From: Escherichia coli
Lineage (GTDB): Bacteria; Pseudomonadota; Gammaproteobacteria; Enterobacterales; Enterobacteriaceae
Assembly (NCBI RefSeq): GCF_050920415.1
Contig: NZ_CP169309.1
Length of the DNA: 64,000 nt
Strand: one strand, 5' to 3'
Below, piece by piece: positions 47,944 to 53,541 of this stretch (the stretch's first letter is position 1; every line of letters begins with the position of its first letter). Made by a program: the position numbers and the translations under genes. Below the pieces are notes generated by a model. The model was not told where the DNA came from and searched no databases. It saw nothing but the letters and a program-made list of their open reading frames with translations.

Positions 47944-48228
47944 TTTGTCGCTCCATGCGCTTGCTCTTCATCTAGCGGTTAAAATATTACTTCAAATCTT
48001 TCTGTATGAAGATTTGAGCACGTTGGCCTTACATACATCTGTCGGTTGTATTTCCCTCCAGAATGCCAGCAGGACCGCACTTTGTTACACAACCAATACT
48101 ATTAATTGAAAACATTCCTAATATTTGACATAAATCATCAACAAAACACAAAGAGGTCAGACCAGATTGAAACGATAAAAACGATAATGCAAACTACGCG
48201 CCCTCGTATCACATGGAAGGTTTTACCA

Positions 48229-48639
48229 ATGGCTCAGGTTGCCATTTTTAAAGAAATATTCGATCAAGTGCGAAAAGATTTAAACTGTGAATTGTTTTAT
48301 TCTGAACTAAAACGTCACAATGTCTCACATTATATTTACTATCTAGCCACAGATAATATTCACATTGTGTTAGAAAACGATAACACTGTGTTAATAAAAG
48401 GACTTAAAAAGGTTGTAAATGTTAAATTCTCAAGAAATACGCATCTTATAGAAACGTCCTTTGATAGGTTGAAATCAAGAGAAATCACATTTCAGCAATA
48501 CAGGGAAAATCTTGCTAAAGCAGGAGTTTTCCGATGGGTTACAAATATCCACGAACATAAAAGATATTACTATACCTTTGATAATTCATTACTATTTACT
48601 GAGAGCATTCAGAACACTACACAAATCTTTCCACGCTAA
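48229..48639 (+). CDS. DUF1398-like protein (ybcV-like)
   Basis: Start chosen at the ATG with GGAAGG 10 nt upstream (136 aa); the ORF-track frame opens earlier at a TTG. Same position as DLP12 ybcV. Confidence 0.55.
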
Positions 48640-48929
48640 ATCATAACGTCCGGTTTCTTCCGTGTCAGCACCGGGGCGTTGGCATAATGCAATACGTGTA
48701 CGCGCTAAACCCTGTGTGCATCGTTTTTAATTATTCCCGGACACTCCCGCAGAGAAGTTCCCCGTCAGGGCTGTGGACATAGTTAATCCGGGAATACAAT
48801 GACGATTCATCGCACCTGACATACATTAATAAATATTAACAATATGAAATTTCAACTCATTGTTTAGGGTTTGTTTAATTTTCTACACATACGATTCTGC
48901 GAACTTCAAAAAGCATCGGGAATAACACC

Positions 48930-49223
48930 ATGAAAAAAATGCTACTCGCTACTGCGCTGGCCCTGCTTATTACAGGATGTGCTCAACAGACGTTTACTGT
49001 TCAAAACAAACAGACAGCAGTAGCACCAAAGGAAACCATCACCCATCATTTCTTCGTTTCTGGAATTGGGCAGAAGAAAACTGTCGATGCAGCCAAAATT
49101 TGTGGCGGCGCAGAAAATGTTGTTAAAACAGAAACCCAGCAAACATTCGTAAATGGATTGCTCGGTTTTATTACTTTAGGCATTTATACTCCGCTGGAAG
49201 CGCGTGTGTATTGCTCAAAATAA
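48930..49223 (+). CDS. bor: Bor lipoprotein (serum-resistance, lysogenic conversion)
   Basis: 97-aa ORF near-identical to lambda Bor (MKKMLLATALALLITGCAQQTFTVQNK...), lipobox LITGC; opposite to late genes as in lambda. Confidence 0.95.
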   Translation: MKKMLLATALALLITGCAQQTFTVQNKQTAVAPKETITHHFFVSGIGQKKTVDAAKICGGAENVVKTETQQTFVNGLLGFITLGIYTPLEARVYCSK

Positions 49224-49254
49224 TTGCATGAGTTGCCCATCGATATGGTCAGCT

Positions 49255-49716
49255 CTATCTGCACTGCTCATTAATATACTTCTGGGTTCCTTCCAGTTGT
49301 TTTTGCATAGTGATCAGCCTCTCTCTGAGGGTGAAATAATCCCGTTCAGCGGTGTCTGCCAGTCGGGGGGAGGCTGCATTATCCACGCCGGAGGCGGTGG
49401 TGGCTTCACGCACTGACTGACAGACTGCTTTGATGTGCAACCGACGACGACCAGCGGCAACATCATCACGCAGAGCATCATTTTCAGCTTTCGCATCAGC
49501 TAACTCCTTCGTGTATTTTGCATCGAGCGCAGCAACATCACGCTGACGCATCTGCATGTCAGTAATTGCCGCGTTCGCCAGCTTCAGTTCTCTGGCATTT
49601 TTGTCGCGCTGGGCTTTGTAGGTAATGGCGTTATCACGGTAATGATTAACAGCCCATGACAGGCAGACGATGATGCAGATAACCAGAGCGGAGATAATCG
49701 CGGTTACTCTGTTCAT
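49255..49716 (-). CDS. Rz: Spanin inner-membrane subunit Rz
   Basis: Matches lambda Rz from [28 protein letters not shown]...; 153 aa. Confidence 0.93.
49314..49496 (-). CDS. Rz1: Spanin outer-membrane lipoprotein Rz1 (embedded in Rz, +1 frame)
   Basis: 60-aa ORF matching lambda Rz1 ([59 protein letters not shown]). Confidence 0.9.
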
Positions 49717-50210
49717 TGCTGACCCCACAAACAGATTTCACGCTCAATCTCACGACGAGTCATGAGACCTTTCCATTGCTTACCGCCAGCATATGTCCAG
49801 CGACGTAGCTGATCACATGCGCCTTTGATATCGCCCTGGTTTATTTTGCGAAGAAGCGTCGATGTTCTGAAATTGCCAGCACCCACGTTGTAAACGAATG
49901 AGTAAAGAGCGCCGCGCATTGTTTCCGGTATATCGACTTTGATGTACGGGTTAATTTGTCTGGCGACCGTGGCAAGGTCTTTATTCAGGAGGGCTTTGCA
50001 TTCTGCTTTGGTATACGTTTTACCGAGCATGATGTCTTTTCCTGTATGCCCGTGACATACAGTCCATACACCAACAATATCTTTGTATGGTATGTAGCTG
50101 ACACCTTCCAGACCATCGTTACCACTTGGGCCAGTGATTAACACTGATGCTATAGCAATTGCTCCGCCACCAATAGCAGCAGCAACGGCTTTTCGTAATG
50201 ATGGAGGCAT
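49713..50210 (-). CDS. R: SAR endolysin (phage 21 R-type lysozyme)
   Basis: 165-aa ORF with N-terminal signal-anchor-release segment ([20 protein letters not shown]) and lysozyme core; rrrD / R21-like. Confidence 0.92.
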
Positions 50211-50425
50211 TATTCACCTCTCGCAGCCTTGCGCTTATCTTCTTTAATCTTGAAATAAAGGTTTGTCAGGTACGTCAGCAGGCCAAATACCAGGCTACCC
50301 AGCACACCTATTGCTGCCCACTGTGAGGGCGTGACTTTATCGAGCAGCTGTAAAAACCAGTAACCGGCACTACCTGCTGAGGTGCCATAGGCGACACCCG
50401 TTGTTAACTTATCCATGGATTTCAT
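50210..50425 (-). CDS. S: Class II holin / pinholin (phage 21 S-type)
   Basis: 71-aa ORF with two TM segments and dual-start N-terminus; essD / S21-like. Confidence 0.9.
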
Positions 50426-50998
50426 AACCCCACCTCGCAGACAAAGCGGGTGTAAATTGAGGGAATACTACGAAACGTAACAGACTCGGAGTCAGTGAAT
50501 AACTCAGGTATTGGGTTATCAGCTAATATCGAGACTCAAAAAATGGAAAAACCCGCTCGACGGCGGGTTTAAGCTGTGTGACGAAGTAACCACTCTTAAC
50601 AGCATAACCAATTTTTTACGTACGTAAACCACTAAATGATATTTGCGAGAATGCTACCGAGTATTGAAAACACCACTACAAATACATAAGCAAATCTCAA
50701 CAAATAACCAACAAATAATTTCCAGTGTTATTTTTAGCCGATTTAAATTGAACCTTCAAATTATAGAGCACTTATAAATAACAGCCGTTAATATAAATTG
50801 GCTAATAGATTTATTTTTATTCAGCCAAGAGCTATAAATAGGATTCGATAGAAAAAAGTTCAGATAAAAATAGAGATCTACTTCACAAATCAAACGAGAA
50901 ACCAAAACTTACATCTTGAAATAATCACATTGATTAGATGAATATTTATCGCGCAGTGACATCATTTTTTAATAATAGTTCAAAAAAAAGGGCTCACG

Positions 50999-52096
50999 AT
51001 GAAAAAATTAACAGTGGCAATTTCTGCTGTAGCTGCATCAGTACTGATGGCGATGTCTGCTCAGGCAGCTGAAATTTATAATAAAGACAGTAACAAGCTG
51101 GATCTGTACGGGAAAGTTAATGCTAAGCACTACTTCTCCTCTAATGATGCAGATGATGGTGATACTACTTATGCCCGTCTTGGCTTCAAAGGTGAAACCC
51201 AAATCAACGATCAGCTGACTGGTTTCGGTCAGTGGGAATATGAATTCAAAGGCAACCGCGCTGAATCTCAAGGTTCCTCCAAAGACAAAACCCGTCTTGC
51301 ATTTGCAGGCCTGAAATTCGGTGACTACGGCTCAATCGATTACGGCCGTAACTACGGTGTAGCATACGACATCGGTGCGTGGACTGACGTTCTGCCAGAA
51401 TTCGGTGGCGATACCTGGACCCAAACAGATGTGTTCATGACTGGTCGTACCACTGGTGTTGCAACCTATCGTAACAACGACTTCTTTGGTCTGGTTGATG
51501 GTCTGAACTTTGCTGCTCAGTACCAAGGCAAAAACGATCGTAGCGATTTCGATAACTACACTGAAGGTAACGGTGATGGCTTCGGTTTCTCTGCTACCTA
51601 TGAATACGAAGGATTCGGTATCGGTGCAACTTATGCGAAATCTGATCGTACCGACACTCAAGTTAATGCAGGGAAAGTTCTTCCTGAAGTATTTGCTTCC
51701 GGTAAAAATGCAGAAGTTTGGGCCGCAGGTCTGAAATATGACGCTAACAACATTTACCTGGCCACTACCTATTCTGAAACCCAGAATATGACTGTATTTG
51801 CTGATCACTTCGTTGCTAATAAAGCTCAAAACTTCGAAGCTGTTGCACAATATCAGTTCGATTTCGGTCTGCGTCCGTCCGTTGCTTACCTGCAATCTAA
51901 AGGTAAGGATCTTGGAGTATGGGGCGATCAGGACTTAGTCAAATATGTTGATGTAGGTGCAACCTATTACTTCAACAAAAATATGTCTACTTTCGTTGAT
52001 TACAAAATCAACCTGCTTGACAAAAATGACTTCACTAAAGCACTCGGTGTAAGCACTGATGACATCGTTGCTGTAGGTCTGGTTTACCAGTTCTAA
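50999..52096 (+). CDS. nmpC: Prophage-encoded general porin NmpC (OmpC/OmpF family)
   Basis: 365-aa ORF with signal peptide, porin beta-barrel signature and C-terminal Phe (VGLVYQF); between Q and the holin as in DLP12. Confidence 0.92.
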
Positions 52097-52234
52097 TCTG
52101 ATTACGAAAAAGATATGTTGCGGGAGGCTTTGCCTCCCCAACATATAAGTGGCTCCCTCAAGCCACTTCCTTTAGGAGCACAACCTTGCTTCTAACTATA
52201 TAAACCTTCTGTTATATATTACCCTTTATTTTTG

Positions 52235-52258
52235 GGGGCGTTGCAACGCCCCATTTTT
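52235..52258 (+). terminator. Intrinsic terminator downstream of nmpC
   Basis: Perfect palindrome GGGGCGTTGCAACGCCCC followed by ATTTTT. Confidence 0.6.
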
Positions 52259-52285
52259 AATAACTTTTAGTAAACAACTGGCATA

Positions 52286-52669
52286 TTAATTAGAGTTATT
52301 AACAACGATATCCATCTCTAACCGGATATCTAATGCCATTAACATCCCTTCAATTATACCCTCAGCCTTCTGTAACCTTTTCCCGATATAACCATCAGAG
52401 CAGCAATGCTTACCTGCCAGTGACATGAATGTCATACCGACTACATAATAATCTACTAATAAATCGTGCAAATCGCTGTTGTTCTTTTTCAGACGGGCCA
52501 TGCACCCGCAAATGATCATCGCGTCATCGTCACAACATTGCGGGCGAGATTTTACTTTTGAAGTAATTAATCCCTTAAAACCGGCGGCAATGGACGACCA
52601 GGTCACATCTTCATGATTATTAGCCGCCCACGCTCCCCAACGCTCAAGAACCATCTGAATATCACGCAT
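52286..52669 (-). CDS. Q: Late-gene antiterminator Q (quuD / phage 82 type)
   Basis: Matches DLP12 QuuD from [26 protein letters not shown]...; 127 aa (ORF-track frame starts 5 codons earlier). Confidence 0.9.
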
Positions 52670-52754
52670 CAACTTACTCCACAAAAATCAGACCAGAACG
52701 CCAATTACAAGCAAAAATCAACAAAATAGTATTAGTTGATTGTTATCTCTGACT

Positions 52755-52895
52755 TCATACTCCTGCTCCTGTCAGGGTTTTGGCGTAATTCTTCAGTATC
52801 CGGTAATCGGTCAAAACAGAACCAGGAAAACGATATAAGCGCAGGCGCACCCAGCGGCGGCGAAGACGCTCTGCCATATAAGACTCAAACATCAT
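52755..52895 (-). CDS. ylcG: Small protein YlcG (46 aa)
   Basis: Hand-translated: [49 protein letters not shown] overlaps the rusA stop (ATGA). Confidence 0.75.
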
Positions 52896-53254
52896 TCATT
52901 CCCCATTTCGGTGATGGTCAGTTCCAGCCTCCCACCTTTGGTAACAGGCATCTTCACAACGCGGTAATCAACGACCTGAGCATCATCCAGCCAGAAACCT
53001 GCTTTGGTGAGTGCGTCAAAAGCGGCCTTTTGCAGATTATCCAGGTCACGGCGACGGCGATCCGGCATGTGGCACTCAATACGGATTTTCACTGGCATAG
53101 CCAGGCCGATATCCAGCATTGCGTTTTTAATGATTCGGGTGACGTTATCGCGGTATGCCTGCCCTTCTGCGCTGATGTGTGTGCGCCCGCGATTATGGCG
53201 GTAATAGCGGTTATTGCTCGGAGGCCAGGGTAGTGTGATGTGGTAAGTATTCAC
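52892..53254 (-). CDS. rusA: Holliday junction resolvase RusA
   Basis: Matches RusA from the GTG start (.[25 protein letters not shown]...); 120 aa. Confidence 0.9.
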
Positions 53255-53541
53255 GCCTTGATTACCCCCTCTTTCAGCCAGATAACCTGCGTTCTCGCCA
53301 TACCTTCCAGCGCGCATTCTTTTGCGTACTCAGCATCGACAAAATGCGTGCGGCGGTCGATTTCGTCGTGACAGGCAGAACAGGCAATGGTGGCAATAAG
53401 GTCTGGCGGTTTAATACCGGTGCCGCACAATCCAGCCAGCCGGATATGTGCCAGTACAGACGTTTCAGGGTTGCCATTACATACGCCAGTGATTCTTACC
53501 TGGCATTCCCGACCACGCGCTGCTTTTCTCAAATCAGCCAT
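53251..53541 (-). CDS. ybcO: YbcO (DUF1364, putative nuclease)
   Basis: Matches YbcO from [17 protein letters not shown]...; 96 aa; Cys-rich. Confidence 0.85.

Follow-up and report, generated by a model that had tools for sequence, protein, structure and literature searches.

A predicted Q-dependent late promoter on the lysis side of the porin gene nmpC in a DLP12/PA-2-type phage locus of Escherichia coli

We examined a stretch of 64,000 nucleotides of Escherichia coli DNA (contig NZ_CP169309.1, referred to here as the window) in which a porin gene separates the late-gene antiterminator gene Q from the lysis genes, and asked where the late promoter that Q acts on is located. Along the minus strand the order is Q (52669-52286), the plus-strand porin gene nmpC/lc (50999-52096), holin S, endolysin R and Rz. 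This order and these strands agree with the first-pass annotation, which had placed nmpC in the opposite orientation between Q and the lysis cassette; its premise that a late promoter lies between Q and S was also right. It had described the intergenic region as AT-rich, and the GC content is indeed 0.27-0.32 over 50600-51050 versus 0.43-0.52 in the flanking genes. For pR' it had proposed two sites, either in 50426-50998 or in 52097-52285, the latter with late transcripts reading antisense through nmpC. The porin-between-Q-and-lysis layout itself is the well-known DLP12/PA-2 arrangement. The three genetic units that frame the question are the following:

52286..52669, minus strand: late-gene antiterminator Q, QuuD type, 127 aa, Q21/Q933W family (PF06530, E 4e-53, full-length match)
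50999..52096, plus strand: intact porin nmpC/lc, 365 aa (Porin_1, E 1e-156)
49255..50425, minus strand: lysis cassette, the first late genes (Phage_holin_2_1, Phage_lysozyme, Phage_lysis)

A PF06530 antiterminator is thus present upstream of the late genes and on the same strand, which is one criterion for a Q21/Q933W-family cassette. The start of Q was taken as the ATG at 52669, as in homologues, and its stop lies at 52286. The conserved Q core ends with LEMD (residue 120, window position 52310), and the last 7 codons (52309-52289) are junction-specific: Q tails after LEMD vary among six relatives according to the adjoining DNA, and DNA homology with phages that carry other cargo also ends at 52310. 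Over residues 1-120 the window Q and the Stx-phage Q share 80% identity, the divergence being confined to the tail, and it matches the solved Q21 (chains 6jnx/6p18) distantly (E 7.6e-07, residues 8-87). On the lysis side, the holin gene is of the phage-21 type, with dual starts at 50425 and 50416 and its end at 50210 on the minus strand. It is followed by the endolysin/lysozyme gene (50210-49713, minus strand) and by Rz (49728-49255) with an embedded Rz1; the counterparts of these genes are labelled antiholin/holin class II, SAR endolysin and spanins in the 434B record. A bor homologue (48930-49223, plus strand) lies within the late operon.

Sequence comparison points strongly to a late-control cassette of the Q21/Q933W family that has been split in two by the porin gene: the Q target very probably lies about 1.7 kb past Q, at 50628-50538, between the porin upstream region and the holin gene. 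Of the two sites proposed before, the first is supported, and narrowed from 50426-50998 to 50628-50538 by homology to the PR' of Stx phages. The porin gene is divergent from this predicted late promoter and convergent with Q. The predicted elements, in the order of late transcription, are:

50601..50628, minus strand: predicted PR', with -35 TTTACG (50628-50623), a 16-nt spacer and -10 TATGCT (50606-50601), from alignment to Stx-phage PR'
50586..50598, minus strand: invariant start region TAAGAGTGGTTAC, with the predicted start near A 50594 (range 50598-50594), from identity among relatives and StxS mapping
50538..50570, minus strand: predicted tR', a hairpin AAACCCGC-CGTCGA-GCGGGTTT (50570-50549) followed by TTCCATTTTTT, from the terminator scan

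A generic promoter scan (16-18 nt spacers) made no call in either intergenic region, the predicted PR' included, which fits 8 of 12 consensus positions. Such a scan was unable to discriminate, and homology was therefore used to locate PR'. With the 240 bp before S as query, a sensitive search matched 360 phage records, mostly of Shiga-toxin phages, over 83 bp directly 3' of their Q. Window positions 50629-50547 are 77-78% identical to this post-Q DNA, in which the counterpart of the predicted promoter reads TTTACG-16-TATCAT. In Ss-VASD and phi345 the matched stretch is labelled 'putative late promoter PR'' and terminator. For the phage group of the window, no promoter annotation was found among the records examined, the curated 434B record included.

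The Stx-phage promoter has been mapped. In strain Sakai, dRNA-seq and Term-seq gave a distance of 258 nt from the PR' start to the 3' end at tR' (PMC7547250). Late and stx expression in Stx phages rely on Q at PR' (PMC7547250, PMC6266700). Counted back 258 nt from any position in the tR' T run, the 5' end of the StxS RNA falls among the first 5 bases of the TAAGAGTGGTTAC block (the shared TAAGAG). We placed the Sakai start from this length of 258 nt; the published coordinate, 1,266,203, disagrees with NC_002695.2. The Stx-phage counterpart of the window hairpin differs from the terminator mapped by Term-seq: the mapped terminator is the second hairpin, at +258, whereas the window has the first hairpin only.

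By homology with the Stx phages, the predicted start at A 50594 lies 169 nt before the holin ATG. The start region TAAGAGTGGTTAC follows the -10 by two bases, is unique in the window and is identical in Stx, cdtI, SfIV, PhiR55_1, PA-2 and 434B phages. It probably holds a sigma-dependent pause element, with the nearly invariant TAAGAG(T) overlapping the predicted start. The candidate Q-binding element is the palindrome TTTACGTACGTAAA (50628-50615), which has one copy in the 64-kb window. We also considered a direct repeat, TGGTTA(T/C), around the -10 as a Q21-like Q site and rejected it, since it is not conserved in Stx phages. The predicted tR' has a stem of about -12 to -14 kcal/mol and carries its T-rich tail (TTCCATTTTT) on the minus strand, that is, the phage late strand. 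It lies 113 nt before the holin ATG and is the sole terminator-like site from PR' to the holin gene; in structure it matches the intrinsic terminator that would be expected between PR' and the first late gene. From these elements we infer promoter activity, Q binding, pausing and termination in the window phage. The minus-strand terminator-like hairpin at 50570-50549 and the promoter homologue just upstream had been missed in the first-pass annotation.

The position of the cassette relative to Q was surveyed in 240 loci around three Q variants, together with phage records. The scan with the first Q query gave only 100%-identical Q genes, and two other Q queries were added; the survey loci are highly redundant (77 are porin loci and 38 carry one lipoprotein-like cargo). 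A conserved block was found downstream of Q in 202/251 loci. Stx phages and 10 SfIV-type loci have the cassette adjoining Q; elsewhere it lies 0.5-2.6 kb off, beyond cargo. In the window it begins 1,658 nt past the Q stop codon (52286 to 50628), and the Q-to-block distance was 1.67-1.69 kb in 73 of the 75 loci with an identical Q and enough downstream sequence. The locus does not have the lambda-style layout, in which no more than about 100 nt separate the promoter from the end of Q, and the Q-adjacent position implied before has to be given up.

We found that the spacer motif, and with it the upstream half of the promoter, follows the Q subtype. The motif TTTACnnnCGTAAA was paired with the window/Stx Q subtype in 124/127 loci and GCGGTCCGC with the SfIV/cdtI subtype (about 50% identical Q) in 74/75 loci, and no cross-pairings of spacer motif and Q subtype were present among the surveyed loci. 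Of 21 'no block' loci with at least 2.5 kb after Q, 20 keep the right motif, 0.7-2.0 kb downstream of Q; these have a correctly spaced TAnnnT hexamer, and only the start region has diverged. In 82 of 84 unique cassettes, 2 nt separate the TAnnnT hexamer from the TAAGAG that follows it. A hairpin with a T run stands at the matching position in most cassettes, with several unrelated stem sequences; this conservation was judged qualitatively, as the automatic detector was too strict and overlooked obvious hairpins. That the motif tracks the Q subtype is the pattern that would be expected if promoter, Q-binding element, pause region and terminator co-evolve with Q, despite the intervening cargo.

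Another promoter in the AT-rich region could also serve the lysis genes, and one such promoter has been reported for the DLP12 lysis cassette:

50950..50981, minus strand: sigma-E-type promoter GAACTA-N16-TCACT reported for the DLP12 lysis cassette, start near G 50950, placed by primer mapping and outside the Q cassette

The DLP12 primers Pdlp12Fw and Pdlp12Rv (supplement of PMC7918800) are reported to span -121 to +650 of the Rueggeberg 2015 start site. In the window these primers map to 51071 and about 50301, and the start site of the DLP12 construct maps to about 50950, beside GAACTA-N16-TCACT; the regulators named in reviews are RpoE, Hha and Q. On an alternative reading, the lysis genes would be expressed mainly from such a promoter and the PR'-like block would be a relic or a mere terminator. 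We consider this unlikely. The block 50545-50645 is 98-100% conserved across 67 unique porin-phage sequences, as a relic would not be, nor would a relic retain a Q-subtype-specific motif over about 200 loci. RNAs from 50950 would still run into the hairpin at 50570-50549, Q-family loading requires a sigma-70 paused complex (PMC9388147), and plaque-forming phages require strong Q-dependent late expression. The sigma-E promoter and PR' can coexist, and the reading fails only in making the former the main late promoter. A second, host-controlled promoter probably also feeds the lysis genes: the DLP12 sigma-E start lies about 525 nt upstream of essD, so that PR' would not be the sole promoter feeding them.

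The second site proposed for pR'/qut, directly after Q in 52097-52285, has fared worse, and it is very unlikely that Q-modified polymerase starts there and crosses the porin and its upstream region antisense to reach S. A pR' next to Q would be lambda-like, and in Stx phages PR' overlaps the last Q codons; the window even offers a precedent for antisense reading of cargo, namely bor inside the late operon. However, the scan called no minus-strand promoter in this segment. A weak minus-strand match (TTGCAA-19 nt-TAATAT, then TATAGT) was rejected, since its 19-nt spacer is beyond the accepted 16-18 nt and its TTGCAA simply forms the porin terminator's loop. The subtype motif and TAAGAGTGGTTAC are both absent from 52097-52285, and the complete cassette is found downstream of the porin instead. 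The segment is also confined to porin-bearing phages (36/36 phage records) and is missing from phages whose Q is 84-85% identical and whose cargo differs. Finally, its structure and its terminator are plus-strand features:

52097..52262, plus strand: porin 3'UTR / IpeX RNA region, with four internal hairpins and the porin intrinsic terminator (fold, terminator scan, phage distribution)

The hairpins that had been noticed at 52110-52260, with their palindrome, are real. Plus-strand RNA of 52097-52262 folds into five stems (-62.4 kcal/mol, z = -8.65, 0/200 shuffles as stable), and the minus-strand RNA of the porin-Q spacer folds more weakly (z = -4.97). Only on the plus strand does ATTTTTAATA come after the palindrome GGGGCGTTGCAACGCCCC (52235-52252), and because of this T run the scan calls an intrinsic terminator on that strand. 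According to published descriptions, IpeX is a 167-nt DLP12 RNA that is made within the porin transcript and represses OmpC and OmpF (PMC12197685, PMC5069750). The window has a structured RNA between the nmpC/lc stop codon and the Rho-independent terminator, in the position and on the strand of IpeX, and this region is 97.4% identical to the DLP12-derived segment of 434B. A permissive Rfam scan of 48500-53500 gave only a chance Trp_leader match on the terminator (E 0.95); Rfam has no family for IpeX or StxS. The hairpins of 52097-52285 belong to the porin transcript, as its 3'UTR (IpeX) and terminator, and the Q-porin spacer is part of the porin module.

Hardly credible, in our view, is a locus with no dedicated PR', where N-antiterminated early transcription would continue via Q and antisense nmpC into S: the Q-nmpC interval does lack a convincing minus-strand terminator (the terminator scan gave only a weak call there, 52330-52307, with 3 GC pairs), but the phage retains an intact Q and a complete cognate cassette, and late and stx expression of the homologous Stx phages is Q-dependent at PR' (PMC7547250, PMC6266700).

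With the late promoter predicted on the lysis side, the porin can be considered as cargo in its own right. Compared with phages that carry other cargo, the boundaries of the porin module lie at 52310 and about 50629. The K-12 nmpC gene has its own sigma-70 promoter at most 199 bp upstream of the ATG, with a start site determined by 5'RACE (PMC11677980). Having its own promoter (in the K-12 copy) and its own plus-strand terminator (52235-52252), the porin is a moron.

The orientation of cargo between Q and PR' was counted for ORFs of at least 100 aa in the 185 loci where the gap measures 400 nt or more. Cargo ORFs were antisense only in 173 of the 185 loci, sense only in 9 and mixed in 3. These locus counts are swollen by near-identical loci and the cluster count is the fairer figure: cargo protein clusters were antisense in 24 out of 33 (IS elements and one false match left out). 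Among the cargo were the porin, a lipoprotein-like protein of 148 aa and DUF6731, together with candidate defence genes for a KAP NTPase (PADLOC PDC-S20, E 6e-176), an OLD-like ATPase (HEC-04), a TIR protein (TIR-TM), an NYN protein and an SDH protease. The porin is thus one of the genes that fill a recurrent cargo slot on the upstream side of PR'. It is a real possibility, which we put forward tentatively, that Q933W-type phages have a dedicated slot that runs from the LEMD end of the Q core to PR', holding near-always antisense cargo outside the early and late units (porins, lipoprotein-like proteins, candidate defence genes), and that the subtype palindromes TTTACGnnCGTAAA and GCGGTCCGC are the Q-binding elements of the family.

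The closest known relatives share most of these features. The DLP12 prophage of K-12 (qsr', cryptic; quuD - nmpC - essD - rrrD - rzpD) has the same genes in the same order and orientation, with IpeX in the same nmpC 3'UTR, and RefSeq labels the window arrangement quuD / porin / essD / rrrD. In K-12, IS5 breaks nmpC after codon 346, whereas the window porin is intact. The Q-to-lysis region of 434B is the DLP12 segment with IS5 in nmpC; 434B is viable, and the segment therefore drives a viable phage. The 2.6 kb R-to-Q segment of the window is 100% identical to PhiR26_1 (listed host E. coli K-12 MG1655) and 98.5% identical to 434B. The arrangement was found in 36 phage records and in 2,391/5,426 complete E. 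coli genomes (about 44%). The PA-2 lc locus (J02580) is 97.7% identical from the porin through the intergenic region into the beginning of the lysis genes, and includes TAAGAGTGGTTAC; its 1986 record labels the conserved start region a CRP-like binding site rather than a late promoter. The PA-2 terminator stem has a one-base change (GAGCTGG vs GAGCGGG).

More distant systems differ in the placement of the cargo or in the Q site. Stx phages (H-19B, 933W and Sakai Sp5/Sp15, the source of StxS) correspond to the window in Q family, -35 and spacer motif, -10 position, 13-bp start region and first hairpin. Their cargo (tRNAs, stx) lies downstream of PR', in sense and inside the late operon, whereas the window cargo is upstream of the promoter and antisense. 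The phage 21 Q21-QBE-SDPE system (structures 6P18, 6JNX) belongs to the same family, PF06530, and works by the same scheme of a promoter with a Q site, a pause and a terminator, with only distant similarity. In the Q21 system, two protomers sit on a tandem direct repeat (PMC9388147), whereas the candidate Q site of the window reads as a palindrome. Lambda bor is, like the window porin, an envelope gene expressed in the lysogen and antisense to late transcription; late transcripts cross bor, which is downstream of PR', whereas the window porin lies upstream of PR' and would not be crossed.

If the cassette is split as proposed, Q would be produced from early rightward transcription, here on the minus strand. 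In the lysogen PR' would fire and RNA polymerase would halt at the hairpin and T run about 50 nt on (50570-50538); PR' transcripts would end there, so that the lysis and structural genes would be off. Meanwhile the porin would be transcribed from its own promoter on the opposite strand, convergent with the silent Q, and its transcript would stop at its own terminator just before Q, the structured 3'UTR being the IpeX RNA. On induction, Q would bind the spacer palindrome and join the polymerase paused just past the start, following the Q21 nozzle model, and the Q-loaded polymerase would read past the terminator into S, R and Rz and then the remainder of the late operon. Since PR' would be on the lysis side of the porin, late PR' transcripts need not cross nmpC, and the gene could be crossed solely by read-through of early transcription past Q. 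Late transcripts would cross bor downstream, as in lambda.

This arrangement would explain how the porin and IpeX can be expressed in the lysogen without interference from a constitutively firing late promoter, and it gives the DLP12/PA-2 porin locus a precise position for its predicted late promoter, Q site and terminator. The survey also yields two candidate Q-binding sequences for the Q family that controls Shiga toxin expression. If the more general proposal is true, palindromic Q sites would imply a DNA recognition unlike that of the direct repeat of Q21, and a cargo slot between Q and PR' with defence candidates could aid prophage annotation and the discovery of defence genes.

The gap between the core of Q, the late-gene antiterminator, and the predicted late promoter PR', preceding the TAAGAGTGGTTAC block that marks the near-invariant start region, is a recurrent cargo slot. 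The slot was delimited as the DNA from Q to the TAAGAGTGGTTAC block in loci L010-L013 and L094-L253 of the surveyed phages and prophages. ORFs in the gap were exclusively antisense in 173 out of 185 loci (a raw count inflated by near-identical loci), and 24 of the 33 cargo protein clusters were antisense, IS elements excluded. Matches to defence candidates among the cargoes were PDC-S20 KAP NTPase, HEC-04 OLD-like ATPase and TIR-TM, while NYN and SDH-protease were further proteins encoded in the gap.

In the window, this slot holds the nmpC/lc porin gene. Across 67 unique porin-phage sequences, this gene contained sharply variable patches with an identity of 0.66-0.80, and the regulatory DNA flanking it was 98-100% conserved. 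The patches probably correspond to surface loops under diversifying selection. The following features were located in and beside the gene:

51545-51695, variable porin patch
51795-51945, variable porin patch
52020-52070, variable porin patch
50950-50981, minus strand, sigma-E-like motif GAACTA-N16-TCACT

The sigma-E-like motif overlaps the nmpC promoter region in divergent orientation, at the start site implied by the published numbering (-121 to +650) of a promoter construct from DLP12, the K-12 prophage with the same porin locus.

Phages of the ev087 type (L005/L013, site 2360-2400 of L013; 13 similar loci), whose Q is 85% identical, carry after Q an antisense blc lipocalin gene and a sense ybgA-like gene, together with a separate sense-strand terminator directly after Q. 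Their cassette retains the TATGAT -10 and the upstream TTTACAATCGTAAA motif, a candidate Q-binding element, but its start region diverges (atc TATAGT ...). In one prophage, L089 (IMGVR_UViG_2627853732_000001), an insertion located ~2.4 kb after Q and reaching to ~19 nt before the -10 end replaces the -35 and the palindrome half of the cassette; both the -10 and the start-region block are intact, and the late promoter is probably naturally disabled.

Two start-region positions covaried among 48 unique variants (window 50574-50594, minus strand, and homologues): GGT[C]AC was combined with G[A]CAC in 18/18 cases, and GGT[T]AC with G[C/T]CAC in 23/27. This joint change suggests that GTGGTnAC-N3-GnCAC is a dyad or forms a small hairpin; in the PA-2 1986 record, the same spot is annotated as a CRP-like site. 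A strong-looking hairpin with a T run follows at +27 to +50 of PR' and is conserved in Shiga-toxin (Stx) phages:

50549-50570, first hairpin after PR' (~1260-1285 in the Stx phages L003/L004/L007)

Term-seq, however, mapped the terminator of Stx phages to position +258, in a second hairpin. The alternatives are that the first hairpin leaks or that RNAs of ~50 nt were missed by detection.

Two further reading frames lie antisense within the late operon, between the Rz and terminase genes:

48930-49223, plus strand, bor
48106-48639, plus strand, 177-aa ORF

Therefore, the phage of the window also has cargo here that late transcripts must cross.
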